Positions 22,420 through 61,397 of a DNA stretch of 64,000 nucleotides are shown piece by piece (the first letter of the stretch is position 1; each line of letters opens with the position of its first letter). Where the stretch lies: contig CAVOLK010000005.1 of the NCBI GenBank assembly GCA_963696765.1, positions 252,851 through 316,850 on the forward strand, read 5' to 3'. Both the position numbers and the translations under genes were made by a program. Under the pieces are notes generated by a model that was not told the origin of the DNA, made no database searches, and saw only the letters and a list, made by a program, of their open reading frames with translations. Source of the DNA: an uncultured Acidobacteriota bacterium. GTDB taxonomy: Bacteria; Acidobacteriota; Terriglobia; Terriglobales; Acidobacteriaceae.

Positions 22420-24347
22420 CTATGAATTAATCTTTGCCTTGTCCAATTGCGCTTCCACGACATAATCCGGGCCGGCTTCTAGTGTTCCCGCGGCCGGAAT
22501 ATGAAATCGAAAAACAGTGCCGATGCCTTCGCTGGATTCGAAGTCCACGGAACCGTAATGCCATTGCAGTATCTGATAGGTCTGCGCCAGGCCGATGCCG
22601 CTGCCATCTTTCTTGGTTGTGAAATAGAGCTCGAAAAGTTTGTCGTGCATGTCCTTGGGAATTCCGCCGCCTTCATCGCGAATCTCAGCCACGACCGCAT
22701 TGTCCTCGCGCCGCGCTGAAATCGTGAGCAGTCCGCCCTGCCGGCATAGCCTGCACGCCGTTGATCACCACATTGAGCAAAGCCTGTTTCATCAGATCGA
22801 CGTCGACTTTAACGGGCAATCGCTGATCCGGCATCTGCCGGTCGATGGTAACGCCGTGCTGCTCCGCATCGGGAGCGGCCAGTTGCGCCACTTCTTCCAT
22901 CAGGCGGCGCAGGTCTATCTCCTCCAGGTGAAGATCGCGCGGCCGGGTGAAGTCGACCAGCGTCTGCACCACGCGATCGAGGCGTCGGATTTCGGTGTCG
23001 ATAATATCCATGTGGCGCCGCGTGTCCGGCTCCTGTTGCGAAAGTTTGTTGCGCAACAACTGCAGGTGCAGCACGATCGCGTTGATGGGATTCTTTACTT
23101 CGTGGGCGACGCCGCGAGTGAGTCGTCCGCTGGCGGAGAGGCGGCGGGACATTTCAATCTCGTCGCCAATGCGACGCACCGATTCCGTGTCTCTCATGAT
23201 CAGCAGCGCGCCGATCTGCGAATTTCTTTCCTGCACGAAGTCGAGCGACACCTGTACGCGCTTTCCCCCGGCCGCCTCAAACTCGCGCTGCGACAGTGGC
23301 CGCCTGCGCTCAAAAGCTTCCAGCAGCGCGCTGCCCAGAAGGGAATCGCGAGCAAACACTTCCTGGACCGTATGCCCGAGCAGTTCCGCGCGCGGACGCC
23401 CCAGGAAAGCTTCCACCGGAGCGCTCACCAGCACCACGCGCGAATCGCGCGCGAACAGCATCAGGCCATCCTGCAGGTTCGACATCAGCTGATCGACGTT
23501 GTCCTTGAGGGCCGAGAAAATTTCCCGGCTGTCTCGAATCTGGCGTCCCAGGTTGGCGATTTTCAGCGAGACCAGACCATATTCGTCGTGCCGCGATTCG
23601 TCCCCGTAGAGCGCTTCCGCGTCGCCGGCACTCACGCTATCAAGATTGCGGCTGATTTTTTTCAGCGGCCCCAGCGCCAGGTTGGAAATTCCCGCAGCCA
23701 GAAACAGCGAGACAAAGATCAGCGTGACCGAAACGTAGGCCGACCTCATCAGCCGGGCCTGCACTTCGCTCTTCAGGAAGACGGTTTGCACGCCGATGCG
23801 AATCGTGCCGAAAGGCTGCGCCATTCAACTCCAGCGGGTAAGTGACGTCGTAAACTGTCGGCCGGACTGAATACCAGGCGCATCTGCTCGCGGAAGCGGG
23901 CATTGACCACTTCCTGAAAGTCGCGCGCGCTTGGGAATCATCTTGCCGACCATAGCGGCATTGGTATGAAGCAACGCCCTGCCGTTGACGTCGACGATCG
24001 AGACGTCGTAGATGAATCGCCAGTCGCCGGGATCGGATTGAAGCAGATTGTTCAGGGCGACGTCGGTTTGCACGTAATCGGCCAAGGCCCGCCGCACCGC
24101 GACCGCATTGCTGGTGTCGATCGAAGTGCTGCTGAAGTCGGGTACGGCGTTCGAGGCGGCGTAGGCCAGTTGATGCGTCAGGCTGATTGCCGTATCCTTG
24201 GCATTGGTGATGCGCAGCCGCAGAATTTGGGAGATGTACAGATACCGAGAACGCCGTAACCATGGTCGCCACCATGAGAGTGATGACCAGCACGATGATG
24301 GTTTTTCGTCGCAACATGAAGCGAAGGGCGGGAACTCGATGCAACAA
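22420..24347 (-). pseudogene. Membrane sensor histidine kinase (TM, sensor, HAMP, PAS, HisKA, HATPase), about five frame breaks
   Basis: Fragments 23640-24347, 23825-24097, 22685-23824 (GVAHEVKNPINAI H-box) and 22420-22692 (EIRDEGGGIP, GSGIGLA). Breaks reconstructed near 24238, 23925, 23875, 23825 and 22738. Confidence 0.8.
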
Positions 24348-28814: not shown

Positions 28815-29016
28815 GGTAGTGGGTCACTTTGAAATTCTGATGGCTTGTTCCCTCATCGAACGGCGTCATCCTGAGCGTAGCCGTTCTCCAGGCGGAGCGA
28901 AGGATCTCCCGTTAGGACACTGTTTGCCACGGAGATCCCTCGGCCCGCTGGTAAAGAACGCGGGCACTTCGGGATGACGCCCCCGTGACATTCACAGTTC
29001 AAACTGACCACTACCC
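28814..29016. repeat. ~200-bp composite MITE-like element (outer inverted repeat enclosing a family-1 palindromic repeat); inverted copy at 43228-43428
   Basis: Outer IR gggtagtgggtcactttgaa / ttcaaactgaccactaccc; inner ggcgtcatcctgagcg ... cttcgggatgacgc. It aligns by eye at about 90% with the reverse complement of 43228-43428. Confidence 0.8.
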
Positions 29017-36974: not shown

Positions 36975-38429
36975 CTAATCTTTCTGCCCATCCCCTAATT
37001 GCGCAGCCTTGTTGCGAGCCTCTTGCGCCTGCTGGGTCAGGCCCTTGGCCTGATAGGCGTCGGCCAGGGCATTTTCTAACTCGCGCATCGTCGCCGTTCT
37101 GTTTCTCTTTTGAGAAAGGATGCGATGGCGTCGTCGTACTGCTTCAACTGGCTTTGTGAAACTCCCATCCGGTAATTGACGCCTTCGCGCCTGCGGCTCC
37201 AGGCGCAGCGCGGTCTTGTACTGGTTGATGGCCGACTCGTGATCGTTCTGCTCGGCAAACGCCACGCCCAGCCCGGCATGCGCCGCCGAGTTGTTTGGCT
37301 CTGCCTCCACTACTTTCACAAATTGTTCCTGCGCTTCTTTCGGCTGCTCTTGGCGCAGGTACGCAGCAGCCCAGTTCCAGTCGAGCTCGGGTGTTATCCG
37401 GCTGCAGATCGATGACTCGTTTCAATTCGCTCGTGCCATCCTCAAAGTTTCCCTTGGCGAAGTAGGCGTGGGCGAGGGCGTAATGCGCGGACGCATCCTG
37501 CGGATTCTTCTGAACTTTCTTTTGTAAATCCCCGATCGCGCGGTCGAGATTCTTTTGCGTCTCGCTCCATGGAGCCGAAACGAATTCCGGACCCGCGCCA
37601 GCGATGCACGCCGAGCGCGCTGCCTGCAACAATCAAAATCATGAACAGGAGAACGCCCACTCGCTTTAGCGGCTGATCCTGTTGCGGGGCCAGCCGCGCA
37701 ATCAGCGCACCGACGATCAGTCCGCTGATCAATCCTCCCGCGTGGCAGGCATTGTCGATGCCCGAAATCATGCTGCCAAAGAGCACATTAAATCCGACGA
37801 AGAATAAAAGGCTGCGCAGCGTTCCCTGGATCGCAAATCGCGGCACAGAAAACTCGCCCAGATAGAACGACGCGATCAATGCTCCGGCTAATCCGAAGAT
37901 TGCGCCCGATGCGCCCACGCTCAACACGCCGGGATTCCATCCCACGCTCGCCAAGCCTGCCGCGATGCCGGTAACGAAATAGATGGCGGCATAGGTCCAG
38001 CGGCCGTAAAGCGATTCGCACAGCGCTCCCAGGTCCCAGAGGCACCACATGTTGAACGCGATGTGCATCAGGCCGCCGTGCAGGAACATGTAGGTCAGCA
38101 GCCGCCACCACTGGCCCGACAAAGTGAACGGCCCAAAGTTGGCGCCGAAATGCACCATCAGTTGGCCGGGGAAGTCGAACGAAAGCCCGCTGGTCGTGGC
38201 CATCGCGATCACCATCGCGATGAAGACCATCACGTTGGCGATCAGGAGAACGTTGGTAAGGCTGATGCTCGATTCGCTGCCGCGCCCAGGGAACGTTCAT
38301 GACGGGCTGGGGCGCGTCGTCGGCGAGTTCGCCGCGCTGCGCCGCTTCGTGCTGCTTACACCACGGGCAAATCTTCTTGCCAAAGGTCAGGCCAGAAAGT
38401 TGCCGCCCACATCGAATGCAGTTCGCCAT
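36975..38429 (-). pseudogene. Rhomboid-family intramembrane serine protease with N-terminal zinc ribbon and C-terminal TPR repeats; about six frame breaks
   Basis: MANCIRCGRQL..CPWCKQH (ORF 37788-38429); rhomboid core WRLLTYMFLHGGLMHIAFNM, GASGAIFGL, CHAGGLISG (ORF 37442-38233); TPR text spread over ORFs 37144-37632, 37076-37279 and 36975-37319. Confidence 0.75.
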
Positions 38430-38504
38430 GTCTTACAAAAGATTATCAGCAGTTGGGTGGTTGCGGGGCGGGAGGGAGCGATGGTGTCATGGTTGGCTGG
38501 TGAG

Positions 38505-38575
38505 AATTGATGATTGTTGATTTGTGATTGTTAATTGAAAAACTCTCGAGGCGCGACAGCAATCAGCAATTACCA
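38505..38575. repeat. Inverted heptamer arrays (GATTGTT-type / CAATCAG-type), weak right arm
   Basis: aattgatgattgttgatttgtgattgttaattg ... gcaatcagcaattacca, between the VWA stop (38615) and the rhomboid start (38429). Unit related to the array at 4085-4190. Confidence 0.6.
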
Positions 38576-38614
38576 CTCAGTATTCAAAAATCTGAACTCT
38601 GCAATCTAAAATCG

Positions 38615-39850
38615 TCAGTGAATGGTTTTGGTCTTGCGCGACATGTAATCCATCAGCAGATACTGCCCCAGCGTGTAGGGCGTGGTGAAGTAGGCCTTGC
38701 CGCGGCACATCTCGGTGACTTTCTGCACGAACTGCACCAGGCCGTAATCCGACGCGAGCATGAACGTGTTGATGAGCACGCCCGCGCGCTTGCACTTCGA
38801 AACTTCTTCCAGCGTCTGGCTGACGACCAGCGGATCGAGGCCGAAGGCATTTTTGTAGATGCGGCCATCTTCGAGCGTGAGCGCCGAGGGCTTGCCGTCG
38901 GTGATCATCACGATCTGCTTCATGTCTTTTCGCTGGCGCTGCAGAATCCGCTGCGCCATGCGCAGGCCTTCGCGCGTGTTGGTGTAGTACGGTCCAACTT
39001 TCACGCGCGCCAGCTGCGACAAGCGGAATCTCTTCCGCCGAATCGTGAAACAGCACCAGCGACAGCGAGTCGCCGGGATACTGCGTGCGGATCAGATGCG
39101 AGAGCGCCATGGCGACTTTTTTCGCCGGAGTGAAGCGGTCTTCGCCGTAGAGAATCATCGAGTGCGAGCAGTCGAGCATCAGCACCGTCGCGCACGATGA
39201 CTGGTACTCGCACTGATGCACCTGCAGATCGGAATATTCGATGTTCAGCGGCAGCGTGAGCCCCTCGCGCTGGATCGCGCTCGACAGCGTGGCAGTGATG
39301 TCGAGATTCGAGCGTGTCGCCGAACTCGTAGGTCTTCGACGAGCCGCTGGTTTCGATGCCGGTGGCCAGATCGCGCGTGTCGTGCCGTCCAAAGCTCGAT
39401 TTGCCCAGCGATCCCAGCAGATTGCGCAGCGACTTGAAGCCCAGGAAGTCGAGACTCTTGTCGGTGATTTCGAACTTGGCTTGCTGCGCCTCGCCGGTCT
39501 GTCCGCCGACGCTCGACTGCCGCGCGGGATCGTGCGGCTCATCGATGGAAATGTAATCTTCCTGCTGCATGCGCTCGATGAGCTTTTCGATCAGTTCGTC
39601 GAGTTGGCCATCTGCGCATCTGCTCGATCTGTTCGCGCAAATTCTCGTCGAACATTTCGCCATTCATCAGCGCCTGCTCGATGGCGCGCTTGAGTTCGTC
39701 GAGCGTCTGCTCGCCCTCGGGCAGCTCGTACCACATGGACTCCTGAAACCCGCTCTGCAGCAGGTAGTCCGAGAGCGCGCCGAGCAAGTCTTCCATGCTC
39801 ATTTCGCCGGCCGGGTCAGGGACGTATTTGGAATAGCGAATGCGTTTCAT
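38615..39850 (-). pseudogene. VWA domain protein (partner of the upstream ChlI-like ATPase), about three frame breaks
   Basis: MKRIRYSKYVPDP (ORF 39539-39850), middle in ORFs 39001-39663 and 38577-39542 ([15 protein letters not shown] DxSxS-like), C-terminus in ORF 38615-39022 ([11 protein letters not shown]). Confidence 0.75.
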
Positions 39851-39856
39851 GAAAAC

Positions 39857-39979
39857 AGCTTTCAGCTATCAGCTATTAGCTTTCAGTTAAGACGTTCTTG
39901 CCAAGTTCACGTTGTGGCGCCGGAGATCTGATCTAGTTCTGACTTGCTGACAGCTGACGAGCTGATAGCTGACAGCTAA

Positions 39980-39981
<2 letters not shown>
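39857..39981. repeat. Inverted heptamer arrays (CAGCTAT-type / AGCTGAC-type)
   Basis: agctttcagctatcagctattagctttcagtt (39857-39888) and tctgacttgctgacagctgacgagctgatagctgacagctaatt (39938-39981). They fill the ATPase-VWA intergenic gap. Confidence 0.85.
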
Positions 39982-41500
<1,519 letters not shown>

Positions 41501-41608
41501 ATAACAAACTTTCCCCGATTATACGCGCCGCGCGAGGCGAGCGTTTTCAACCGTACGTCAGCGATCCACGGCGCGCCTGGCAATTCGGATTGAGTACCGC
41601 ACTGCCGC

Positions 41609-42266
41609 TCATCGCGCGTGGCCGTTCCCGCCGGCCTTCTCGCGCGTCTTCGCCGCCTTTTGAAGGTTGGGAAGAATATTTTCCAGGTAAGCCGCGACGG
41701 CTTTGATGCGTTCGCTCTCCGACCGCATCGCTAGCAGTTTCTGCTTGAAATCCAGATCGAGCGGTAGCGAGCCCGCGAGGTAGAACGAAAGCGAAGTCTG
41801 GTCGGCGGCCGACAAATCCTGCACCGCTCCCGCCAGCGAAAGAATTTCCAGGTGTGCCTGAATCGCCCGCGCCTTGTCTTCTTCCGACGCAGCGCCGGGT
41901 TCATCCGGCACCAGCAGCACTTCCGCCTGCAGAAACGCGCGCTCGCGCTTCAGTTCGAGCACTTCGAAACGCTCACGGCCCTCCGCGACCAGGTCCAGCC
42001 GCCCGTCGGAATATTCCTTGGTTACACTGATAATCTCAGCCGTGCAGCCAACTTCCGCCACGCCATCTTCGAGGGCGCGCACCACGCCGAACGGAGCATT
42101 CGTTTGCCCGACACTCGCCGATCATCTCTTTGTATCGCGGCTCGAAGATATGCAGCGGCAGGGGAGTGCCGGGGAGAAGGACAACATCGAGCGGGAACAA
42201 GGGAAGCAGGGCCACGAACTCTCCACCGAGCGCAGAAGCGGCGCGGGTTTTCCGATTGTACGACAT
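41609..42266 (-). pseudogene. LON N-terminal (substrate-binding) domain protein, one frame break (~42100)
   Basis: [29 protein letters not shown] (ORF 42036-42293) continues as [21 protein letters not shown] (ORF 41609-42085). The span is 3n+1. Confidence 0.75.
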
Positions 42267-42340
42267 GACTAAGGGGCATGAGATGCGAGGCATGACCTTC
42301 GCGTCTTGACTTGCACCGGCGCAGCGAATACAACCCGAGC

Positions 42341-43123
42341 ATGGAACTCGTCGGGAAAGTGGTGGTGGTTACGGGCGCTTCGATGGGCATTGGCGAGGCC
42401 ATCGCCAAAGTGTTTGCCGAGCAGGGAGCGGGGGTCGTGCTGCTCTCTCGCGATACGGCGCGCGCCGAGGCTGCCCGCGAGCGCGTCGGATTTCCGGAAC
42501 GCACCATCGCGCTTTCCTGCGACGTGCGGCATTCGGAGGAGATCGACCGCGTGCTCGGGCTCACGCTGCATCACTTCAAGCGCGTCGATGTCTGGATCAA
42601 CAACGCGGGGCATGGCCTGATGGATTCGGTCGCGGAACTGGATTCGCCGGCCACTCACGAACTGTTCGAGACTAATTTCTTTGGCGCGCTCTCGGGGATG
42701 CAGGCAGTGATCCCGGTCATGCGCCAGGAGGGCGGCGGCACCATCATCAACATCTCAAGCGTTGCGGGACATATCCCGCTGCCGTTTCACGGCGCCTACA
42801 GCGCTACCAAGTTTGCCCTGAATGCTATTGGCAATGCGGCGCGAGTCGAATTGAAAAAAGATGGAATTCACGTGCTCACGGTCTGCCCCGGCTATGTGCG
42901 CACGGCGTTCAGTCAAAATGCGGTTCGAGGGAACGAGCCAAAGACGGTGCGCCCGGCTGCGATTCGCGGCATCAGCGCCGAACGCGTGGCCCGCGCAACG
43001 CTGCGCGGATATTTAAAAGGGAAGAGGGAAGTGATCGTTCCCTGGTGGATGCACCTGCCGGTGAAGGTGTATCAGTTGTTTCCTGGCTTGGTGGAGTGGG
43101 GGATGGTGAGGATGGCGAAGTGA
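42341..43123 (+). CDS. SDR family oxidoreductase
   Basis: [22 protein letters not shown] (TGxxxGxG), [12 protein letters not shown] catalytic YxxxK. Confidence 0.85.
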
Positions 43124-43126
43124 AAA

Positions 43127-43486
43127 GGTTTCAAGGTTGCAGAGTTTCGAGGTTTCAAGGCCTCGAGGTTTCAAGGACTCTGCTGACTAGACACTCTAAG
43201 ACTGTGAAACCTGAAACCCTGAAACTTGGTATTGGGGTCAGTTTGAATTATGAATGTCACAGGGCGTCATCCCGAAGAGCCCGCGTTTTTACCAGCGGGC
43301 CGAGGGATCTCCCGTGGCACACAGTGTCGTAGCGGGAGATCCTTCGCTCCGCCGGAAGAACGGCTACGCTCAGGATGACGCCATCGACGAGCGAACATGC
43401 CATCAGAATTTCACACTGGCCCACGACCTCAAACCGTGGAACCTTGAAACTTTGCAACGTTGCAACCTTGCAACCTTGAAATCTTG
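43127..43486. repeat. Inverted short-period arrays (GGTTTCAAGG-type / CCTTGAAAC-type) whose spacer holds the composite MITE copy 43228-43428
   Basis: Left arm 43127-43176; short inverse block tgtgaaacctgaaaccctgaaactt at 43203-43227; right arm 43437-43486. The structure fills the convergent gap between the SDR stop and the TPR stop. Confidence 0.8.
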
Positions 43487-46468: not shown

Positions 46469-46484
46469 CATAAGGAGAGACGAA

Positions 46485-46878
46485 ATGAAAATCAAAGTGA
46501 CCAGCATTTATGTGGACGACCAGGAAAAGGCACTGCACTTCTATACCGAGATACTCGGCTTCGCGAAGAAGACGGATTTCAGCCAGGGTCCATATCGCTG
46601 GCTGACCGTGGTCCCGTCCGAGGAGCCCGAATGGCACTGAACTGCAGTTGGCGCTCAACAACAACCCGGCGGCCAAAGCGTATCAGCAGGCGATCTTTCA
46701 GCAGAACCAGCCCGCGATGATGTTCTTTACCGATGACGTGAAGGGCGACTATGAGCGCATCAAGGTGCGCGGCGCCGAGTTCACCATGCCGCCGACCGAC
46801 GTGACTGGCTCGACCATTGCGATGCTGAAAGATACTTGCGGCAACCTCGTTCAGTTGACCCAACTGGCGAAGTATTAA
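46485..46878 (+). pseudogene. VOC (glyoxalase/bleomycin resistance) family protein, one frame break (~46635)
   Basis: MKIKVTSIYVDDQEKALHFYTEILGF (AAGGAG SD) continues as ELQLALNNNPAAKAY...TIAMLKDTCGNLVQL in ORF 46648-46878. The span is 3n+1. Confidence 0.75.
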
Positions 46879-50741: not shown

Positions 50742-51932
50742 CTATTCAGCCAACTCCGGAATGGCATATTTCAGGCCTGCGATCACTCCTCGTAATTCAG
50801 CAAGGCCTTTCAATCTGCCCACCAGCGAGTAACCAGGGTACGACGGTCGTGAGATATCGTCGGCCATCAGGTGGCCATGATCTGGACGCATGGGGATCTC
50901 GTGATCCGGTTGGTTCTGCCTTCGCCTGCGCGCTTCTTCTTTTAGAACTGCGGCGATCACGCCGGCCATGTCGGAACTGCCGCGCAGATGTTCGGCCTCG
51001 TGAAACGAACCGTCGGGCTCGCGCATGACCTGGCGCAGATGCACGAAATGAATTCGCGGCGCAAATTCGTTAACCATCGCGAGCAAATCGTTGTCGGCAC
51101 GGGCTCCGTAGGAGCCAACGCAAAACGTCAGCCCATTCGTCGCGGTATTGTAGCCGGCGAGAATAGACCGCGCGTCTTCCGCAGTTGACACAATGCGCGG
51201 CAAGCCGAACAAGGACCACGGCGGATCATCTGGGTGGATGGCGAGACGAATGCCGAGTTCCTCCGCCACCGGCGCCACTTCTTGCAGGAACGCGACGAGA
51301 TGATCGCGCAGCCCGTGCGAGTCCAGATCCTGGTACTCCGCGATTAAGCTGTTAAGCGTCGCACGGTTATGCGGCCCTTCCGCTCCCGGCAATCCAGCAA
51401 TGATGGTTTGTTCTAATTCGTCGCGTCGGGCACCGGTCATGGCTTCGTAACGCGAGAGCGCTGCGGCAATGCGCTCCGCATCATAATCCTCCTCGGCATG
51501 TGGACGCTGGAGAATGAATAAATCGTACGCCGCGAAATCGTTGGCATCGAAGCGCAACGCGAAGGCGGAAGAGGGTAGCCGCCAGCGCAAGTCGGTTCGA
51601 GTCCAGTCGACGACGGGCATGAAGTTGTAGCACACGATCTTCACATCGGCCTGTGCGAGCGCGGCGAGAGAATCCTTCCACGCGTCGATGAACTGGCGAA
51701 ACGGTCCGGTGCGCAGCTTGATGGAATTGTGAATGGGAATGCTTTCGACAACCGACCAAGTCAGTCCGGCGGATTCGATCTGCGCCTTGCGCTTGAGCAC
51801 CTCATCCAATGGCCAGCGTTCGCCACGATAGAGATGATGCAGCGCCGACACTACACCGGTCGCGCCCGCTTGCCGGACATGATCGAGCGGAACTGTATCT
51901 TGAGGACCAAACCACCGCCAGGTTTCCTTCAC
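50742..51932 (-). CDS. uxuA: Mannonate dehydratase
   Basis: MKETWRWFGPQDTVPLDHVRQAGATGVVSALHH, CYNFMPVVDWTRTDL, AIHPDDPPW..GLPRIVST, IPMRPDHGH: close co-linear match to E. coli UxuA as I remember it. Confidence 0.9.
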   Translation of the reverse strand: MKETWRWFGPQDTVPLDHVRQAGATGVVSALHHLYRGERWPLDEVLKRKAQIESAGLTWSVVESIPIHNSIKLRTGPFRQFIDAWKDSLAALAQADVKIVCYNFMPVVDWTRTDLRWRLPSSAFALRFDANDFAAYDLFILQRPHAEEDYDAERIAAALSRYEAMTGARRDELEQTIIAGLPGAEGPHNRATLNSLIAEYQDLDSHGLRDHLVAFLQEVAPVAEELGIRLAIHPDDPPWSLFGLPRIVSTAEDARSILAGYNTATNGLTFCVGSYGARADNDLLAMVNEFAPRIHFVHLRQVMREPDGSFHEAEHLRGSSDMAGVIAAVLKEEARRRRQNQPDHEIPMRPDHGHLMADDISRPSYPGYSLVGRLKGLAELRGVIAGLKYAIPELAE

Positions 51933-52046
51933 GCCGATATCTTAAACCCGAGTTCGTGGCATCAGCCATGCTCACGAAATTCAAAGTTTCGATTCGACAC
52001 GAAAACCATTCTCGGTGAAGATGAATGGAGCGAGGCAATTGCGGAA

Positions 52047-52700
52047 ATGTCGAGCAATCTCAACCATCGGTGGAAGCATATAAAAGCGGTCATCCTGGAT
52101 TATGGAGAAGTCCTATCCCATCGTCCCACGGCGGAGGAAAACGCCCGCCTGGCAAGCTTTTTCAGCCTTCGCGCCGATCAGCTTCCGGCGTTGTGGGAGC
52201 GGAATCGCGGCCCCTACGACCGCGGCGATCTCACTCCAGAGGTGTATTGGTCAATGCTGGCGAAAGATGCGGGATGCAAACTCGGCCCGGATCAACTGGC
52301 AGCGATCCACGAGCTCGATACCGCGATGTGGAGCAAAGTGAATTCCCGCATGGTGGAATGGCTGGGTCACCTTCGTTCGTCTGGTATGAAGCTGGCCCTC
52401 CTCTCGAACATGCATCCCGGAATGGTGACCTATTGCCGCAAAGAGTTTGCATGGCTCAAGAATTTTGACTTCGTCACATTTTCGGCGGAGGTGAGATTGA
52501 TCAAGCCGGATCCAGCAATCTACGAGCATACGCTGCGCGGCCTGGGTGTGAGGGCTTCCGACGCTTTGTTTCTGGATGACCGGGAAGTCAACATTCGAGC
52601 GGCTCACGCTCTGGGCATTCATGCGCTGCGCTTTGAATCGATCGAGCAACTGCGCCGCGAGCTGGAATCTGCAGGCTTTCCGATTTTGCCGGTGGCCTGA
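52047..52700 (+). CDS. HAD-IA family hydrolase
   Basis: KAVILDYGEVL (DxG/DxD-like motif I), LALLSNM (motif II), LFLDDREVNIRAAHALG (motif IV). ATG 52047 lies within ORF 51729, whose 5' part is antisense to uxuA. Confidence 0.75.
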   Translation: MSSNLNHRWKHIKAVILDYGEVLSHRPTAEENARLASFFSLRADQLPALWERNRGPYDRGDLTPEVYWSMLAKDAGCKLGPDQLAAIHELDTAMWSKVNSRMVEWLGHLRSSGMKLALLSNMHPGMVTYCRKEFAWLKNFDFVTFSAEVRLIKPDPAIYEHTLRGLGVRASDALFLDDREVNIRAAHALGIHALRFESIEQLRRELESAGFPILPVA

Positions 52701-52721
52701 TCGCAGGCTCGCGGCTACGGG

Positions 52722-53498
52722 TCAGACTAAAGTGACCTTTATGCCGGCTTCCTTCAGCGCATGGAGATCCGCTTTCGGAATTTGTTTGTCGGTGATAACT
52801 TCCTGCACGGCGGTTACCGGCATAATGTTGCACAGGCTTCTGCGCCCAAATTTGCTGGAGTCGCAAACCGCAATGGTTCTGCGGCTCACCTCGACCATGG
52901 CGCGATTGACTTCAGACTCCAATAGATTCGGAGTGAAAAGTCCGGCCTTGGTATCGAATCCGTCCACGCCCAGAAATAGAATGTCCGCGCTCAGTTGCCG
53001 CAGGTTTCGCTCGGCCAGCGGACCTACCAGCGAAAATGAGTTCTTGCGCAGCATGCCTCCGGTCAGGATGACTTCAATTCGCGTTCCGGCAAGCTCGGCG
53101 GCAATGTTGAGCGCATTCGTAATTACGGTAAGCTGCGCCATATCTTTCAGCGCCCGCGCGATCGCCGTCGTGGTGGTTCCTGAGTCCAACAAAACGGACT
53201 GGCCCTCTTCAACCAGGCGGGCCGCAGCTTCGGCGATCTGGGCCTTCTGCTTACGATGAAGTTTCTCCTTCTCGCGCAGGGTAGGGTCGAGCAGAGCTCC
53301 GCCCTGCACCGGTAGCGCGCCACCGTGAGTGCGTTGGATGGCGCCCTGGCCGTCCAGGAACTCAAGATCTTTGCGGATAGTTATTTGAGAAATGCGAAAG
53401 TGCCGCGCCAGTTCCTTGACCAGCACTCGTCCGTCGCGATGCAGCACTCCAAGGATTTCGCGACGCCGTTCTTCGTTGAGCAAGCCATTCGAAGGCAT
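52722..53498 (-). CDS. DeoR/GlpR family transcriptional regulator
   Basis: RRREILGVLHRDGRVLVKELARHFRISQITIRKDLEFL HTH plus a C-terminal sugar-phosphate sensor fold. The start at 53498 (MPSNG) is preferred over 53606. Confidence 0.85.
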   Translation of the reverse strand: MPSNGLLNEERRREILGVLHRDGRVLVKELARHFRISQITIRKDLEFLDGQGAIQRTHGGALPVQGGALLDPTLREKEKLHRKQKAQIAEAAARLVEEGQSVLLDSGTTTTAIARALKDMAQLTVITNALNIAAELAGTRIEVILTGGMLRKNSFSLVGPLAERNLRQLSADILFLGVDGFDTKAGLFTPNLLESEVNRAMVEVSRRTIAVCDSSKFGRRSLCNIMPVTAVQEVITDKQIPKADLHALKEAGIKVTLV

Positions 53499-53644
53499 GT
53501 GTGAGGGTCTCGCGTTTTCCACAAAGCCGTTGCTGCGAGCAAAAGTAAAACCGGGATCGATGGCGTCCACCGCCGGCTGCATCACATAGACAGAGCCGTT
53601 GAGCACGCCTCCGAGGTTCGCATTGACGGGACGCGGTCTTACTG

Positions 53645-53706
53645 TATTATTACGAACGATTACTTTTACTTTCGTTTTATTGCGTTGTCAACCGCGATTA
53701 TTACGA
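53645..53706. promoter_or_regulatory. Direct repeat ATTATTACGAA x2 in the AT-rich DeoR / glycosidase divergent region
   Basis: Identical 11-mers at 53645-53655 and 53696-53706 (51-nt centre spacing). Confidence 0.35.
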
Positions 53707-53773
53707 ATGCACTTTAGAGGCGCTTTCGATTCGTGGCGCAGAAAAACTACTTGTTAGCTCATAGGAGTTCCCA

Positions 53774-56011
53774 ATGATCGTTCGCAGACACGGTGCTGTG
53801 CTGTTCGGCGTGGTCCTCGCCCTCACTTTCGTGCAGACGGATTGTTCGAAGGCGCCGGACGCACAGCCCAATTCGCCGCTAACCGCTTCCGAATCGTCCC
53901 AACCTTCGACGATCAAAGTGGACGTGAAGCCGGCAGGCCCCGTGGTTCTGACCACTAGCGCGGCCGAGTTTCAAGTAAGGCCAGACGGTTATGTGCAGGC
54001 CTCGCTGTTGAGCGACGGGAAGATGCTCTCACTCGACGAACCCAACGCCGGAACTGACGGCGACAGCAACTTTGTGCGCGTCGGTGGCAAAGATTTGCCT
54101 TTCAAACTCGACTTCGCGCAAGCCCAGGTTCGCGAAGCGACGGGCAAAATGGGTGCAGGCAAGCGCGTTGAAATTCCGGCGCAGAGCGCGGGAAGTTCGA
54201 CCAATTTGCAAGCCGTTCTGGCGTTCGAGGTCTATGACAAGTTTCCTAACGTCTTGCTGAGTACCGTGGAATATAAGAACGCGGGCACGAGTGCAGCGAC
54301 CCTTGAAAAGAGCGTGAATCTGCGGCGGCGGTTAAATGCACGACTCGAAGACGCGAAAGCGAAGCCGTGGGAAATGTGGTCGTTTCATGGCGCGAGCTAT
54401 GACTGGGGAAAAGACGATGTGGTGAAGCTGACACCAACGTTTTATCAGCCGAATCTGATGGGCGAGATGGTCAAAGGGGGCTATGGTGGCGGCATTCCGG
54501 TGGTTGCTTTCTGGACCCGACAGGTGGGTGAAGCGGTCGGACACGTGGAAACGATTCCGATTTCCGCGGCGATCCCGGCTAAGGTCGCGGGCGATGGGCG
54601 GCTGAATACGGAAGTGGATTACGCCGCGAACATCACGCTGAAGCCGGGCGAAACATATTCTACCCCGCGCAGTTTCGTCTCGGTTTTTTCGGGCGACTAC
54701 TACGAGCCGCTGCGCATTTGGTCGAGCGTGCTGCAAAAAGAGGGATGGGAACTTCCGAAGCCTTCGAGCGAGGCCTACAACGTAAGCTGGTGCGGTTGGG
54801 GATACGAAGCCGACGTGACGCCCGCGCAGATGCTGGGCACCGTTCCGAAGCTGAAAGAGCTTGGCATCAAGTGGGTCACGCTGGACGATCGCTGGTTCGA
54901 CACGTACGGCGACTGGAATCCGCGCACCGACACCTTTCCCGGCGAAAGTATTCAGAAGATGACTGAGGACTTCCACAAGCAAGGCATGCTGGCGCAACTA
55001 TGGTGGCTGCCGCTGGCGGTCGAGGATGGGCAGGGACGATACGAGTCGCACAAATATTCTGTGTCCAAGGTTGCGCAGGAGCATCCCGAGTGGCTGATCC
55101 TCGACAAGAACGGCAAGCACGCCCGCATGACTCGCGGCTTGGCGGTTATGTGCCCGGCGGTGCCGGAAGTTCGCGCGTATCACAAGCAGCTGACGGAAAA
55201 ATTCATTCGCGACTGGGGATTCGACGGCAGCAAGCTCGACAATATTTATAGCGTTCCAGCCTGCTACAACCCGGCTCACCATCACAAGTCGCCGCAGGAT
55301 TCTGTGAATGCGATGGGCGACGTCTACAAAGAAATTTTCCAGACGACGCGCGCGATAAAGCCGCAGAGCGTCACTCAGAGCTGCCCGTGCGGCACGCCGC
55401 CGTCGCTGGCATGGCTGCCGTTCATGGATCAGGCAGTGACTGCCGATCCGGTGGGCGCGGTGCAAGTGCGCCGGCGGATCAAGATGTACAAAGCGTTACT
55501 GGGCCCCGAATCGGCCGTCTACGGCGATCACGTCGAACTCTCGGCGATGACCCGAGTTGGCAACGACTATAGAGAACACGGCGCCGATTTCGCCTCCACG
55601 ATTGGAGCGGGAGGCGTGGTGGGAACGAAATTCGTGTGGCCCGATCCTGGCCCGAAATTCAAAGCGGTGAATCTCACGCCCGCGAAAGAAGAGCACTGGA
55701 AGAAGTGGATCGGCTTGTACAACCAGAAAATGTTATCCAAGGGCGAGTTCGAGGATCTTTACGTGACCGGCTACGACACGCCCGAGGGGTACGCGATCGC
55801 GAAAGACGGGAAAATGTATTACGCGTTCTTTGCCCCGGCCAACTGGAAAGGCGAACTGGAACTGCGCGGATTGAAGCCCGGTAAATATCGAGTGACTGAC
55901 TACGCCGATGCAACCGATCTGGGCACGGTGGAAGCTTCAGCTTCAGGGACCGCGAAGTTGAACGCGGAGTTCAAGGAACATCTGCTGCTCGAGGTCAGTG
56001 CGCAGCCGTAA
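53774..56011 (+). CDS. Secreted alpha-galactosidase-like glycoside hydrolase (clan GH-D, GH36/27-like)
   Basis: 745-aa intact ORF with a signal peptide; WVTLDDRWFDTYGDWNPRTDTFPG and GFDGSKLDN match the DDGW..GDW..FP and KxD catalytic-region pattern of clan GH-D. Confidence 0.65.
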   Translation: MIVRRHGAVLFGVVLALTFVQTDCSKAPDAQPNSPLTASESSQPSTIKVDVKPAGPVVLTTSAAEFQVRPDGYVQASLLSDGKMLSLDEPNAGTDGDSNFVRVGGKDLPFKLDFAQAQVREATGKMGAGKRVEIPAQSAGSSTNLQAVLAFEVYDKFPNVLLSTVEYKNAGTSAATLEKSVNLRRRLNARLEDAKAKPWEMWSFHGASYDWGKDDVVKLTPTFYQPNLMGEMVKGGYGGGIPVVAFWTRQVGEAVGHVETIPISAAIPAKVAGDGRLNTEVDYAANITLKPGETYSTPRSFVSVFSGDYYEPLRIWSSVLQKEGWELPKPSSEAYNVSWCGWGYEADVTPAQMLGTVPKLKELGIKWVTLDDRWFDTYGDWNPRTDTFPGESIQKMTEDFHKQGMLAQLWWLPLAVEDGQGRYESHKYSVSKVAQEHPEWLILDKNGKHARMTRGLAVMCPAVPEVRAYHKQLTEKFIRDWGFDGSKLDNIYSVPACYNPAHHHKSPQDSVNAMGDVYKEIFQTTRAIKPQSVTQSCPCGTPPSLAWLPFMDQAVTADPVGAVQVRRRIKMYKALLGPESAVYGDHVELSAMTRVGNDYREHGADFASTIGAGGVVGTKFVWPDPGPKFKAVNLTPAKEEHWKKWIGLYNQKMLSKGEFEDLYVTGYDTPEGYAIAKDGKMYYAFFAPANWKGELELRGLKPGKYRVTDYADATDLGTVEASASGTAKLNAEFKEHLLLEVSAQP

Positions 56012-56981
56012 TTATTGCTGCTGCTGTTCCTGCGCTTCGACCAGATGGGGTTGCTGGCTCTCATCGAGAAATTGGGACCACTCTTCATCCGCGGCAAACT
56101 CTTCGTCTGGAGGAAGCACTGCTTGCGATGGAGTCACGCGCACGCGAACCTGCAGCTGCGTTTCTGCTTTTCCCTTCATCATGCCCATGGTGGGCGGGAC
56201 GTCGCCATAATCGCGACCGATCGCAGTGCGAATATGCTTTTCCCCAGCCAGTCGATTAATCGTAGGATCGAAACCGACCCAACCGAAGCGGGGAAGAAGA
56301 GCTTCTACCCACGCATGCGTCGCACCCTCCGCCACGCCGCGTTCACCGTCGCTGCTGTGGTAAAGGTATCCACTGACGTAACGACAGGGGATTCTGGCAT
56401 TCCGCACCAGCGCGATCATGATGTGAGCAAAATCCTGACACACGCCCTGGCGCGAGCGAAGCGCATCTTCAATGGGAGAATTTACCGCCGTGCTTTTCTT
56501 TACGTAGCTGAAACTGCGATGCACGCCGGAGTTGATATCCTGCAGGAACGCGAGCGGGCTGCGGTCTCTTTCTTTCGTCCGCGCCCATCTCCGCTGCCAG
56601 TTGTTCCAGTTCCGGGCTGGAGCGCGCGAAATGACTGGGCATGAGCATGTCCCAATAGTCTTTTTTTTCTACAAGGTCTTCTAACTCTTGCCAGGCTTCG
56701 TACTCCATAACTTCGGGAATCGCAGGCTGGAGATCGATATTGACCAGCGCGTCGGTGATGATGGTGAGTTGGCTATGACGAGCCGGCAGGTCGAAATGGT
56801 GCACCAGGTTGCCGTAAGAATCGGTATACCCAAAAATCCGGGCGCGAGGATTTACGGATAATTGAAAAACGAAGCAGCGCTGATTGCCCTCGCTGCGCGG
56901 ATGCATGCGCACTTCCATCATGCTCTGCCAGACGGAGCGGCTGTAGCGGTAGCGCGTGAAATGGCGGATGGCGTAGAACAT
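56012..56981 (-). pseudogene. Transglutaminase family protein (Bact_transglu_N + transglutaminase core), one frame break (~56560)
   Basis: MFYAIRHFTRYRYS (ORF 56469-56981) continues via RDRSPLAFLQDIN into ORF 56012-56524 (RQGVCQDFAH, THAWVEA, GFDPT Cys-His-Asp triad). The span is 3n+1. Confidence 0.85.
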
Positions 56982-57915
56982 TCAGTTTTGAAACGCAACT
57001 TCAACCGGATAGTCGATATAAAGCTCATGAACCGCCGCGTGCAACTCACGGCATTGTTCAATAATTCCTGCGAGGTACTTGTGCAGGCCGCCTATGATTT
57101 CGCCGATCTGCACATACGTGACCATCGATCGCAAGCGCCCGATCAGTCTTTCGACTTTCTCCGTCCTGCGGCTCAAGGAGAGATTGCTGATCGCGCTCAG
57201 AGCGCCGTGCATATGGTCCATGGAATAACGAACCGAGTAAGGAAACTCCGGCTTCAACAGCAGGAAGTTTGCGATTCGTTCCGGCTTGAGTTCGGCGGTG
57301 CAGGCCTTGCAGTAGGCTTCAAATGCGGCACAGCTACTTAACAAGCCCTACCCAATCGAGGTCGTCCGCATGCTTGCCCACGACAAAGTAGGCGTCCAGC
57401 AGGATGCAGAGGTTAGTCGCACGCTCGATGTACTTGCCCAGTTGAATAAAATGCCAAGCTTCATCGTGATTCAAAGTGGCCGCGGTAATCCCGCTCAACC
57501 GGTACGAGCCTTCGCGAACCAGGGTCACCACACGCATGGCACCGGCATCATCGTCTGGCTGGAGCACGGACCCGGTGACGTCGTGGAACAGGCGATTGAG
57601 GTGCTCCCACATTTCCGAACTGATTTCCTCGCGAACTTGCCGAGCATTGTCGCGAGCGGCGCTGATGCACTTCACAATCGAGAAAGTTCCATCCGGATCG
57701 CCCACCAGCGAAAACAGAGCGCGCTGTGGATCGACGTTGTTGGAAGCCGCGCCCGGAGCCAGCGACGACACGGCGCGAAACCATCGTTCTTCCGTGGAAA
57801 ATTTCGCCGGATTCAAAATCAAGCCGTAGGTCGCCTTGAGCACACGAGCTGCATTGTCGGCCCGCTCGAAATAGCGGCTCATCCAGTAAAGACTGTCGGC
57901 TACGCGTGAAAGCAT
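56982..57915 (-). pseudogene. Alpha-E domain protein, one frame break (~57340)
   Basis: MLSRVADSLYWMSRYFERADN (ORF 57334-57915). DLDWVGL then LSSCAAFEAYCK (ORF 56982-57344). The break lies within gtagggctt. The span is 3n+1. Confidence 0.85.
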
Positions 57916-57932
57916 TTCTTATTCTTCCAATC

Positions 57933-59406
57933 TCAATTTTGCAGAACCCAGGTGTCTTTCGACCCTCCGCCCTGCGACGAATTCACTACCAGCGAACCCT
58001 TTCGCAGCGCCACGCGGGTCAAGCCGCCCGGAACAATCGTGATTTTGTCGCCATACAGAATATAGGGACGCAGATCGACGTGGCGCGGCTCAATGGACCC
58101 TTCTATAAAACATGGCGCGGTCGAAAGATTAATTGTAGGCTGCGCAATATAGTTTCGCGGCTGCGCGTAGATTCTCTGTCGAAACTCGGCCCGCTCCTTC
58201 TCCGTGCTGTGCGGGCCGATCAGCATTCCGTACCCGCCGGATTCACCAACAGCTTTCACCACATACTGGTCCAGTTTCTGGCAAACATGATCTCTCTGCC
58301 CGGGGTCGGACATCAGCAGCGTCTCAACGCCCTCGAGAATTGGATCCTCATCCAGGTAGTAGCGAATAATTTTCGGGACGAAGGCATAAATCGCCTTATC
58401 GTCGGCGACGCCCGTCCCCAGCGCGTTCGCGAAGGCTACGTTTCCCGCGCGATAGGCATTAAACAGTCCGACAGCTCCCAGCGAGGAACCAGTCCCAAAG
58501 ACCATGGGATCGAGATAGTCGTCATCGATGCGGCGATAGATCACATCCACACGCTGCAGGCCGAACGTCGTCCGCATGTAAACGATATTGTCGTGCACCA
58601 CCAAATCTCGTCCCTCGACGAGTTCAATGCCCATTTGCCGGGCCAGATATGCATGTTCGAAGTACGCCGAGTTGTAAGAGCCGGGCGTTAATAAGACCAC
58701 GGTCGGCTCGTTCCGGCCCTCGGGAGCAAGACGACCGCAGCGTCGACAATAAGACCTGGCTGTACTGCTCAATGGGCCGCACCCGGCATCTTTGAAACAA
58801 TCCGGGGAATATCTGCTTCATGACCCGGCGGCTGGTCAGCATGTAGGAGACCCCGCTGGGGACGCGCAGGTTGTCCTCCAGGACCACAAAGTTCCCATCC
58901 GGCCCGCGGATCAAATCGGTACCGACCACGGTGATGTACACGTCGCGGGGAACCTTCACACCGCGCATTTCGCGGCGGTAGTGTTTGCAGGTGTAGACGA
59001 TGCTGCCGGGCACCACGCCGTCTTCAATGATTTTGGCGTCATGATACACATCTTTCAGGAACAGATTGAGCGCTGTGATGCGCTGCGTTAGCCCGCGTTC
59101 AATTCGTTCCCATTCTGTCGCCGTTATGATTCGAGGCAGCAGGTCGTTCGGAAATATTCGCTCCGTGCCTTTATCGTTTCCATAGACGGTGAAAGTAATG
59201 CCCTGGTTGAAGAAGGATTGATCCGCCTCGTGCTTGCTGCGTCTTAGCTCGTCGGCGTCGAGCGTGAGGAGCAGGTTGTGGAGGGGCCGATATTGCTTGC
59301 GAGGATGGTCCACCGCGCTGAACATTTCGTCATACGCGCCATTGAATTCGTAGCGGTGGAGTGAGTCCGCTCCGCTGCGATTGGACGGATCCGTCTCGAT
59401 AATCAT
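57933..59406 (-). pseudogene. Circularly permuted type-2 ATP-grasp protein, one frame break (~58735)
   Basis: ORF 58624-59406 (NQGITFTVYG, VVGTDLIRGPDGNFVVLEDNLRVPSGVSYM) continues as [34 protein letters not shown] in ORF 57933-58772. The span is 3n+1. Confidence 0.85.
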
Positions 59407-59507
59407 GATCGCGGTGCCGTGGCCCTCGCCAGAATAGCGTATCGACCGCGAATTGAGGATCGGGAATACCGCTTCGCGTTATTGAAGAAACTGCTGGAAA
59501 CCCGAGC

Positions 59508-60289
59508 TTATACCCTCGATTGCGCGACTTCTCTGATGCTCTGTGCGGGGTTTTCGCTGCCTTCTGATTGAAACTCGATGTCGGGGAGCTGCTCGACCGC
59601 CCGCCGCAGGGACTGTTCCCAGCTGGAGTGGATCAGGTTCAAATCCCGATCCCCGGCGCTGAAACACGGCGGTACCGCGTGATTTGCAGGCTGTCTTTTT
59701 TATAGAGCAGGAGATCGAACGGGGGACCGACAGTGACATTGGAGCGCATGGTCGCGTCCAGCGAGAGAAGCGCGTATTTTGCCGCGACCTCAAGGGAGGT
59801 TGAGGATTGGATGCCGCGATCCAGGATCGGCCGGCCATACTTGCACTCGCCTAGCTGCAGATAAAGCGAATCCTCCGTGGCCGCCAGCGGATTTCCCTGG
59901 GGATAAATCAAGTAAAGGTTGGGCTCCTGCCCGCGCACCTGGCCGCCCAGCAGCAAATGAACGTTGAAGCTGAAGGAATCGCGCTCGAGCGAGGCCCGGT
60001 CAATGTCGGAGACACGGCGAACGCAGTCGCCTACAATGCGGGCAGCATCGTAAAGCGACCCGGCCTGGGCCAGGCCCCGCCCGGAATCAAAATCGTCTCC
60101 CAGAAGCGTGATTACCGATTGGCTGATGGAGAGGCTGCCGCTGGTAAGAATTACAAAAACCCTCTCGCCCGCCTGCACAAAGCGAAACATCTTGCGGCAG
60201 GTGTTAACCTGATCAAAACCCGCGTTGGTCCTCGAATCCGAGGCCAAGACCAGGCCTTCCCGCGTTGCAATTCCCAAACAATATGTCAA
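59508..60289 (-). pseudogene. Anbu (ancestral beta-subunit, proteasome-like Ntn peptidase), one frame break (~59680)
   Basis: TTG 60289 (AGAGGA SD) gives (M)TYCLGIATREGLVLASDSRTNAG with Thr as residue 2. The C-terminus DRDLNLIHSSWEQSLRRAVEQLPDIEF lies in another frame and ends at the stop at 59508-59510. The span is 3n-1. Confidence 0.8.
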
Positions 60290-60326
60290 TTTGTCCTCTG
60301 CTCTGAAGCCTAACGCATCATACACT

Positions 60327-60351
60327 GATTGCGCACTCAGATTGCGCACTC
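60327..60351. promoter_or_regulatory. Tandem direct repeat GATTGCGCACTC x2 upstream of the Anbu operon
   Basis: Identical 12-mers at 60327-60338 and 60340-60351, 38 nt upstream of the TTG start, in the 177-bp divergent region. Confidence 0.35.
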
Positions 60352-60466
60352 GAATTTGCAATCCGCCTCAGCAAGAAATAATGTGCAACATCAACTAGAT
60401 TAACGTGTTACTTTCTGCATCTCATGTGCGCCAGCACCCTGCTCGCGCAAGGATACCTGCATTCCT

Positions 60467-61279
60467 ATGATGATTCGGCTCGGCTATGACATTCAATTTG
60501 AGACGGTCGGCGAAGTGCCGATCATCACGCTGCTCAACGTGCACCCTTCGCGAAGGAACGATCTACGAGAAGCCGACGAATTAAGCACCGACCCCTTAGT
60601 GAAGATAGACAGCTATTGCGATACCTTCGGCAATCGGGCTTGCCGCCTGTTGGCCCCGCCCGGAAAGATTCGATTGCAGAATTCCACCCTGATCGAAGAC
60701 TCCGGCTTGCCGGACCCGGAAGGCCTCGATGCGGATGAGATTCCCGTCGATCAACTGCCGGTTGACGTCCTGCCATACCTGATGAACAGCCGTTATTGTG
60801 AAGTGGATCTCTTATCGAACACGGCCGCAGAGCTGTTTTGGAACGCTCCCAGAGGGTGGCAGCGTGTTAAAGCGGTCTGCAATTGGGTGCACAAAAAAGT
60901 CACTTTCGGCTACGAATTTTCCAATCCCACTCGCACCGCTCTGGGCGTCTATACCGAGCGGGTCGGGGTTTGCCGTGACTTTCAGCATCTGGCGATCACT
61001 TTTTGTCGAGCGCTTAACATCCCTGCCCGCTACGCCACCGGATACCTGGGAGACATCGGCGTGATTGTGGCTCCCAGTCCTATGGACTTCAGCGCGTGGT
61101 TTGAAGTTTACCTGGGAAATCGATGGTGGACATTCGATGCCCGGCACAACATTCCACGCATCGGCCGCGTGCTCATGGCGACCGGCCGCGACGCCACCGA
61201 TTGCGCGATTACAACGTCGTTCGGCAGAGCCCGGTTGACGCACTTCTTTGTAGTCTCCGACGAAGTGCCGAACCCATGA
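60467..61279 (+). CDS. Transglutaminase-like family protein (second copy, divergent from the Anbu operon)
   Basis: 270-aa intact ORF: N-terminal MIRLGYDIQFE.., core RVGVCRDFQHLAITFCRALNIPARYATGY, FSAWFEVYL, TFDARH. Confidence 0.8.
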   Translation: MMIRLGYDIQFETVGEVPIITLLNVHPSRRNDLREADELSTDPLVKIDSYCDTFGNRACRLLAPPGKIRLQNSTLIEDSGLPDPEGLDADEIPVDQLPVDVLPYLMNSRYCEVDLLSNTAAELFWNAPRGWQRVKAVCNWVHKKVTFGYEFSNPTRTALGVYTERVGVCRDFQHLAITFCRALNIPARYATGYLGDIGVIVAPSPMDFSAWFEVYLGNRWWTFDARHNIPRIGRVLMATGRDATDCAITTSFGRARLTHFFVVSDEVPNP

Positions 61280-61397
61280 CGGAGCCAGAAAGTCGCCCTG
61301 AGAGCGTTTTTTCTCCGCTTCCTGCTGTAAAGGGGAAACAACTCATGTTTCGTAACGAAAAATCAGGCACTTGGTCACCACACTGGCGCAGAGCTTT

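Follow-up and report, generated by a model that had tools for sequence, protein, structure and literature searches.

One probable consensus error interrupts each operon gene in the Anbu cluster of an uncultured Acidobacteriaceae bacterium

A window of 64,000 nucleotides from an uncultured soil bacterium of the Acidobacteriaceae (Terriglobia) contains a four-gene Anbu operon in which each gene is split once into two overlapping ORFs that lie in different frames. The original prediction, made from the window alone, had left two alternatives for this arrangement, a decaying operon or a locally poor consensus, and the question is which of them applies. Our reading, to which we assign a probability of about 0.88, is that the cluster is functional and strongly conserved and that the four breaks are errors of the consensus, not mutations.

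The cluster and its products

The four operon genes are tightly spaced on one strand in the order Anbu, ATP-grasp, Alpha-E, TGase (Table 1), which links Anbu in the genome to the ATP-grasp, Alpha-E and transglutaminase genes. Both the co-directional layout and the identities of the genes had been predicted. All four genes lie at the predicted coordinates, and their identities are borne out by Pfam and by matches to Anbu structures in the PDB; the repaired translations gave significant matches to the expected families.

Table 1. Features of the Anbu locus, numbered by position in the window
Feature	Coordinates	Strand	Remarks
Anbu (ancestral beta subunit; predicted Thr peptidase, proteasome-like)	59508..60289	-	259 aa after repair
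Circularly permuted ATP-grasp (predicted amidoligase)	57933..59406	-	490 aa after repair
Alpha-E domain protein	56982..57915	-	310 aa after repair
Transglutaminase-like protein, Bact_transglu_N + Transglut_core	56012..56981	-	322 aa after repair
TGase2, second transglutaminase-like gene, divergent, intact	60467..61279	+	270 aa; Pfam Transglut_core E 2e-20
Divergent intergenic region	60290..60466		Anbu ribosome-binding site inside; 13-nt tandem duplication

The Anbu protein matched the PDB Anbu chains 5LOY, 5NYJ, 5NYF, 5LOX and 5NYW with E values of 1.5e-70 to 3.3e-54 (phmmer), and the alignment covered residues 1-237, continuing through the frame break. The best match to a proteasome beta subunit was far weaker (E 7.6e-4), and Pfam Proteasome also matched weakly. 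Translation starts at TTG 60289, with AGAGGA 4 nt 5' of the TTG. This start had been proposed because it makes Thr the first residue after Met removal, and the comparison with solved structures agrees: Thr2 aligns to the catalytic Thr1 of 5LOY and to Thr2 of M-T-Y in 5NYJ, and each of the 134 homologues with a recognisable N-terminal motif has a start-capable codon immediately 5' of this Thr. Asp17 and Lys32/33, which are named as part of the Anbu Ntn catalytic centre (PMC6376114), lie in LASDSRTNAG and CRKMFRF and align with identical D and K residues in 5LOY, 5NYJ and 5NYF. Anbu is described as lacking a propeptide (PMC5666114), and in the protein encoded here the catalytic Thr1 is likewise predicted from the sequence to be exposed right after the initiator Met, with no propeptide.

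The repaired ATP-grasp protein, 98% identical in amino acids to that of the sister species, covered the whole CP_ATPgrasp_2 profile (positions 1-374 of 374, E 3e-166, 553.5 bits with a gathering cut-off of 32); PF14403 and PF04174 are the models of the circularly permuted ATP-grasp family. The repaired Alpha-E protein matched PF04168 over positions 1-293 of 294 (E 2e-81, 274.8 bits), and its translation carries the ER motifs RYFERADN and KYIERATN. Both domains of the operon transglutaminase were matched (PF01841 with PF08379, 78.8 and 76 bits), and its predicted Cys-His-Asp core was located, with Cys in GVCQDF, His in THAWVE and Asp in GFDPT. An NCBIfam scan of the operon proteins matched no specific model.

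The breaks in the window and in related loci

Alignment to intact orthologues placed two extra nucleotides in Anbu within 59659-59664, one in the ATP-grasp gene at 58730 and one in the Alpha-E gene at 57346-57349. In the transglutaminase gene, one extra nucleotide lies within about 56563-56573, where alignments to three related loci (L001, L082 and L084) leave the exact base ambiguous. Three breaks are thus net +1 and that of Anbu is net -1, and both the shifts and the positions agree with those first read from the window (~59680, ~58735, ~57340 and ~56560). Even in the unrepaired ORFs, the family profiles run on across the breaks: CP_ATPgrasp_2 is matched over positions 1-139 and then 133-374, Alpha-E over positions 1-182 and then 184-293, and the broken transglutaminase gene shows Bact_transglu_N followed by Transglut_core (Pfam). 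After repair, no in-frame stop was left in any operon gene.

Two related loci, L001 from a sister species (91% nucleotide identity) and L002 (77%), have all four operon genes unbroken at the window's break positions, which disfavours the pseudogene reading. The repaired operon proteins are 97-99% identical to those of the sister species, at a DNA identity of 91%. With L001 as the reference, dN/dS was 0.017-0.028 per operon gene and also low (0.03) downstream of the breaks, whereas the intact neighbours gave higher values (GH 0.086, DeoR 0.15). None of the insertions at 57346-9, 58730 and 59659-64 occurs in L084 (96.2% nucleotide identity), a contig of the same species that has a 124-aa SDR fragment identical to one in the window; the transglutaminase gene of L084 does have an extra base, but at a different spot from that in the window, and 17 indels in these 4.4 kb are private to L084. 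Similarly, L082 belongs to the species of the intact L001 and has two insertions that are private to it, one in Anbu and one in the transglutaminase gene. When metagenomes were scanned with a pattern across the Alpha-E site that allowed the extra base to be present or absent, the one match was a JGI contig of 82% identity, and it lacks the insertion. Among 80 GTDB loci, frame-split operon genes were present in 4/16 MAGs of the Microflora Danica Nanopore set and in 0/64 of the others (Fisher P = 0.001). The Microflora Danica project used Nanopore-only assembly with one round of Medaka polishing (PMC12313526).

Breaks are also common elsewhere in the window, where at least 15 lie outside the operon. 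The genes affected include tsaE (broken at about 15588) and those for a histidine kinase (at about 22742), a LON-N domain protein, a VWA protein, a 513-aa protein and a glyoxalase, together with the start of a HAD gene; these are unbroken in L081, which belongs to the same contig as L084. The earlier impression that the breaks are special to the four operon genes is therefore contradicted both by the window itself and by the sister assemblies, which are broken at other positions. Given about 20 breaks in 64 kb, 1.4 would be expected in the 4.35-kb operon, where four were observed (P(>=4) about 0.05), and the probability of exactly one break per gene, given four breaks, is about 0.08. Since neither value is extreme, the pattern in the operon is not far from chance, which can produce a row of one break per gene. 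A net shift of +1 was seen in 17 of 19 probable breaks (P = 4e-4), and each of the five window-private events in coding sequence whose direction could be polarised was an insertion. In 17/19 cases, the inserted base differs from both of its neighbours (P = 0.002 against random expectation); because of this, homopolymer-length error was rejected as the specific mode.

Origin of the breaks

Almost certainly, the four frame breaks were introduced as consensus errors by a noisy metagenome assembly and do not reflect biology, so that, of the two alternatives first offered, locally poor consensus is the one that the evidence favours. They would be insertions of one or two bases, such as Nanopore-only metagenome assemblies leave where coverage is low or where the co-assembled strains are not identical. 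We give about even odds to a particular form of this artefact, a chimeric consensus of at least two co-occurring strains in which both alleles were threaded into the sequence at polymorphic sites. The position in the ATP-grasp gene that is T or C in relatives reads TC, in tandem, in the window, and the sequence at the Anbu break looks like a mosaic of two serine-codon haplotypes, GTT-TCC-GCC as in L084 and GTC-AGC-GCC as in L001. The identity of the inserted bases points the same way, in that they are mostly unlike both neighbours and adjoin their transition partner in 15/19 cases (read by eye from the contexts), as does the regional clustering of errors (38.7-42.1 kb and the operon), which is seen in both the window and L084 at different positions. 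Against a chimera, the second allele is absent from all relatives at the Alpha-E and transglutaminase sites.

It is improbable, in our judgement, that the operon has just been inactivated in the strain of the window and that the four insertions are real, making this an incipient pseudogene cluster. In its favour, no operon gene has escaped a break, whereas the neighbours of 745, 270 and 866 aa appear in the ORF list as unbroken, as had been noted, and the density of breaks in the operon is about 3x the window mean. Anbu operon genes are also reported to be non-essential without stress (PMC5666114). The dN/dS against L001 was slightly higher downstream of the breaks than upstream (0.030 and 0.016), a difference that was not significant (P = 0.08). 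An excess of nonsynonymous changes is lacking, however, as are stops after repair, and selection showed no sign of relaxation. Close relatives have not inherited the disruptions: the same-species contig L084 and the sister species are without the window's insertions, and the sister assemblies have breaks of their own at other sites. Breaks of this kind also occur in tsaE and many other window genes, and the spectrum consists almost entirely of insertions. Genuine bacterial pseudogenes show a bias to deletions. The suggestion of a decaying operon is accordingly set aside. Programmed recoding, in which ribosomal +1/-1 frameshifting or transcriptional slippage at the breaks would regulate the operon, was rejected as scarcely credible because, despite the orderly one break per gene and the identical net +1 of three of the four, the sites share no slippery heptamer or homopolymer and the examined orthologues (L001, L002, L004, L083 and L084) are all in frame at those positions, with comparable breaks in unrelated genes across the window.

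The locus is not a well-resolved example, and it serves mainly as a caution that clustered one-base insertions in long-read-only metagenome contigs mimic pseudogenes.

Relation to known Anbu systems

The locus is one more member of the known and widespread Anbu system, an ordinary, well-conserved acidobacterial copy. All four components of the Anbu operon described in the literature (Valas & Bourne 2008; Iyer et al. 2009; Fuchs et al. 2017; Piasecka et al. 2018) are found here too, and the literature cited in the original prediction supports what was said of this gene set. The cluster shares with the known operon a propeptide-less Anbu with Thr right after the start and with Asp17 and Lys32/33, a full-length CP_ATPgrasp, an Alpha-E protein, and a Cys-His-Asp transglutaminase with Bact_transglu_N. 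It differs in gene order, Anbu being first here, whereas Piasecka et al. give ATP-grasp, Alpha-E, TGase, Anbu. The ATP-grasp, Alpha-E and transglutaminase genes, in the order seen here, also make up an Anbu-less triad (COG2308 / COG2307 / COG1305), the arrangement in most of the 80 related loci; Anbu lies within about 6 kb in 14 of the 81 loci examined (L001-L080 plus L082), and the window thus belongs to the Anbu-containing minority. HslV and the 20S proteasome beta subunits belong to the same Ntn-hydrolase fold family, and the Anbu of the window matches PDB 6Z46; unlike them, it has neither HslU or another AAA+ partner nearby nor a propeptide.

Hypotheses of peptide tagging or degradation have been attached to the operon association (PMC3235984, PMC5666114, PMC6376114). 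Judged by the protein families and this literature, the ATP-grasp enzyme with Alpha-E would use ATP to form an amide or isopeptide bond on a peptide or protein, and the transglutaminase-like enzyme and Anbu would then process or degrade the ligated product. The same three papers cite induction in Pseudomonas putida under nitrogen limitation, and the most probable role of the system is in the turnover of proteins or peptides under that condition. Purified Anbu did not cleave standard peptidase substrates (PMC5666114, PMC6376114), and the only activity shown for an ATP-grasp enzyme of this kind is the release of orthophosphate from ATP, by that of Yersinia bercovieri (PMC6376114). In the literature searched, we found no functional assignment of Anbu after 2018. 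The operon adds a strongly conserved acidobacterial example and does not make the question of substrate and role more testable.

The divergent second transglutaminase-like gene, TGase2, was recovered by Pfam where it had been predicted (Table 1), and this lineage-specific paralogue, found with Anbu in Acidobacteriaceae loci, is an addition to the known Anbu operon. Its Cys-His-Asp triad is incomplete: Cys and Asp are kept, and the canonical His position is occupied by Ser (FSAWFEV), as in 9/9 TGase2 orthologues (that of the window and eight others). On its sequence, TGase2 is a member of the transglutaminase-like family with a non-canonical active site. It occurs together with Anbu in all eight complete loci of the Acidobacteriaceae type. 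We tentatively raise, and consider rather doubtful, a lineage-specific architecture in the Acidobacteriaceae, with Anbu at the head of the operon and, in every case, a divergent His-to-Ser transglutaminase paralogue as its partner gene. Were the pairing a functional partnership, with TGase2 as an adaptor, regulator or substrate-delivery factor, it might offer a handle on the Anbu substrate; this Anbu-linked paralogue without the canonical His is the only lead from the locus, and a mildly useful one. A scan of the Anbu locus for sigma-70 promoters and terminators gave no signal exceeding the shuffled expectation. The intergenic region between Anbu and TGase2 contains a 13-nt tandem duplication at 60322-60347 that is not present in the sister species.

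The operon and its interrupted genes

Four consecutive genes on the minus strand of the window each appeared in the ORF listing as two overlapping ORFs in different frames, and the pieces matched the Pfam families Proteasome, CP_ATPgrasp_1/2, Alpha-E, Bact_transglu_N and Transglut_core. The two pieces abut in Pfam profile coordinates both in the ATP-grasp gene (1-139 then 133-374) and in the Alpha-E gene (1-182 then 184-293). We used the C-terminal piece of ATP-grasp to scan GTDB species representatives and obtained 80 loci, the best match being L001, from the Acidobacteriaceae MAG MFD00008.bin.1.10, which is collinear with 51918-61280 of the window at ~90.5% DNA identity. The original prediction had proposed a comparison with orthologous loci, and all four operon genes proved to be intact in L001 and likewise in a second relative, L002 (77% identity). 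Relative to both loci the window carries extra bases in every one of the four genes, the exact base being ambiguous in the transglutaminase gene. When these bases were taken out, the repaired proteins matched their Pfam models end to end and were 97-99% identical to those of L001. The predicted operon was correctly called, and the ORF listing, Pfam and orthologue alignment bore out all of its gene coordinates, break positions and net shifts.

Operon genes and neighbours: ORF pieces or extent, extra bases relative to L001 and L002, repaired protein length, and dN/dS against L001
Gene	Position	Strand	Source	Extra bases	Length (aa)	dN/dS
Anbu	59639-60361 / 59479-59838	-	ORF listing	two, 59659-59664	259	0.017
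ATP-grasp	58624-59406 / 57933-58772	-	ORF listing	one, 58730	490	0.020
Alpha-E	57334-57915 / 56982-57344	-	ORF listing	one, 57346-57349	310	0.026
Transglutaminase	56469-56981 / 56012-56524	-	ORF listing	one, about 56563-56573	322	0.028
TGase2, Transglut_core protein (intact)	60467-61279	divergent	Pfam			0.031
GH36-like alpha-galactosidase (intact)	53774-56011		Pfam			0.086
DeoR regulator (intact)						0.15

Source of the frame breaks

The original prediction had left two readings of the breaks, poor consensus and a decaying operon. We favor consensus error, at a probability of about 0.9. A contig of the same species (ERZ25039604 contig_49139, taken as L081 and L084; ~96.2-96.6% identity to the window) was available for comparison, its operon region, L084, being reached via a 124-aa SDR fragment identical in the two assemblies. 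When the window was aligned four ways with L084, L001 and L082 (a contig from the same species as the intact L001, at 96.4% identity to it), the insertions at 57346-9, 58730 and 59659-64 proved to be private to the window. At the transglutaminase site L084 has its own extra base ~10 nt away, in a stretch with six L084-private indels; in all, 17 indels private to L084 lie between 54063 and 58496 and fragment its genes for GH, transglutaminase, Alpha-E and ATP-grasp. L082 has private one-base insertions in the Anbu and transglutaminase genes. On these alignments, the set of breaks differs from assembly to assembly, and no break is inherited.

The breaks had also been thought peculiar to the operon genes, a view that did not hold, as comparable breaks were found in the tsaE, histidine kinase, VWA and LON genes and others. 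Pfam continuity placed splits near 42100 in the LON substrate-binding-domain gene and near 39020 in the VWA gene, and suggests that the rhomboid/TPR gene is broken within 36975-38296; tsaE is split near 15588 and the histidine kinase near 22742, and splits are also probable in the genes for an MFS transporter, a TPR protein and an NtrC-type regulator. A codon-usage scan detected 24 same-strand frame switches, five of them ordinary gene boundaries and 19 probable breaks, 17 of the latter being net +1 (P = 4e-4). The same-species contig is intact at single-base insertions of the window in the VWA (360 aa), 513-aa, LON (201 aa) and glyoxalase genes, and has breaks of its own in genes that are whole in the window, such as an SDR gene and a radical-SAM gene. 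At about 20 breaks per 64 kb, 1.4 would be expected in the operon and four were observed (P about 0.05); given four, the probability of one break per gene is 0.08.

As to the kind of error, the inserted base differed from both neighbors in 17 of 19 cases, so homopolymer miscounts were rejected. At 58730, L001, L082 and L084 have T, the relatives L002, L083, L004 and L009 have C, and the window carries both bases in tandem. At the Anbu site, the window sequence GTT-TCA-GC-GCC mixes GTT-TCC-GCC of L084 with GTC-AGC-GCC of L001, in which serine is encoded by two different codon families. These features would fit a window consensus in which several strains were mixed. Of the 80 loci from GTDB, only L007, L008, L017 and L045 had operon genes split across two frames, all of them Microflora Danica MAGs (4/16 such MAGs versus 0/64 others; Fisher P = 0.001). 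The assemblies of that project were made from Nanopore data only, with a single round of Medaka polishing (PMC12313526), and the ENA contigs L081/L084 and L082 have contig names in the same style as those MAGs. The split gene in those four MAGs was Alpha-E.

Decay of the operon was rejected. Nei-Gojobori estimates for the window against L001 (dS about 0.4) gave dN/dS of 0.017-0.028 for the four genes, no stop codons were present in their repaired frames, and the breaks were private to each assembly and spread over the window. For pooled codons dN/dS was 0.030 downstream of the breaks versus 0.016 upstream, a difference that was not significant (P = 0.08). By these substitution patterns, the operon genes are without a signature of decay, and of the two original readings of the breaks only poor consensus stood.

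Several minor features of the error distribution were recorded. Window frame breaks lie at 15444-15833, 22420-23824, 36975-42368, 46479-46875 and about 51972, affecting tsaE, the histidine kinase, rhomboid/TPR, VWA, 513-aa, LON-N domain and glyoxalase genes and the HAD hydrolase start; the densest cluster, at 38.7-42.1 kb, has at least 10 single-base insertions versus the same-species contig. That contig has its 17 private indels in L084 1-6600 and few in the adjacent 38-53 kb, so that the density of errors in these assemblies varies strongly from region to region. Two independent assemblies were error-prone in the operon region, the window and L084, which may reflect strain heterogeneity at the locus. 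In L083 (JGI metagenome contig Ga0182024_10010794, 82% identity) a one-base deletion at about 4070, adjoining an A4 run, splits the ATP-grasp gene into two frames.

Anbu, its partners and the surrounding DNA

Against the solved Anbu structures 5LOY, 5NYJ, 5NYF, 5LOX and 5NYW, the repaired Anbu protein gave matches at E 1e-70 to 3e-54. It has Thr2 aligned with Thr1 of these structures and retains Asp17 and Lys32/33. The N-terminal motif was located in 134 database homologues, and every one of them has a start-capable codon immediately before the Thr. This confirms the predicted start at TTG 60289, with Thr as the first residue after Met removal, and is in line with the absence of a propeptide reported for Anbu (PMC5666114).

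That Anbu shares an operon with an ATP-grasp protein, Alpha-E and a transglutaminase has been published (PMC3235984, PMC5666114, PMC6376114). These papers offer peptide tagging, a DUB-like role or turnover during nitrogen starvation as hypotheses, record induction in nitrogen-limited Pseudomonas putida, and state that no peptidase activity of Anbu was detected in vitro. Our literature search found no later functional assignment for Anbu. The locus is a further example of this known, widespread system. In the mechanism that we propose, the ATP-grasp enzyme and Alpha-E would together join an amino group to a carboxylate of a peptide or protein by way of an acyl-phosphate intermediate, the transglutaminase-like enzyme and Anbu would then hydrolyse modified or damaged proteins, and the system would support protein turnover when nitrogen is scarce. 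We would give the biochemical part of this scheme, ligation followed by hydrolysis, roughly even odds.

Unlike in the textbook operon, where Anbu is last, Anbu is the first gene here, and a second, divergently transcribed transglutaminase paralogue, TGase2, is present. TGase2 accompanies Anbu in 8/8 complete Acidobacteriaceae-type loci; loci lacking Anbu have no TGase2. All nine orthologues have Ser at the canonical His position (FSAWFEV versus THAWVE) and keep the Cys and Asp. Across the 81 loci examined, the shared core is the ATP-grasp/Alpha-E/transglutaminase triad, and only 14 carry Anbu.

The Anbu leader, in the divergent intergenic region, contains a 13-nt tandem duplication at 60322-60347 (minus strand GAGTGCGCAATCT x2, including the palindrome TGCGCA) that is single-copy in L001 and L082; it may be either an operator that has been duplicated or a further artefact of assembly. 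Elsewhere in the window, at 43125-43486, lies an intergenic element (about 360 nt) in which arrays of 8-nt tandem repeats (AAGGTTTC-like) make up long, imperfect inverted arms on either side of a core; it looks MITE/REP-like, and a second, inverted copy of its core is located at 28815-29009 (88% identity).
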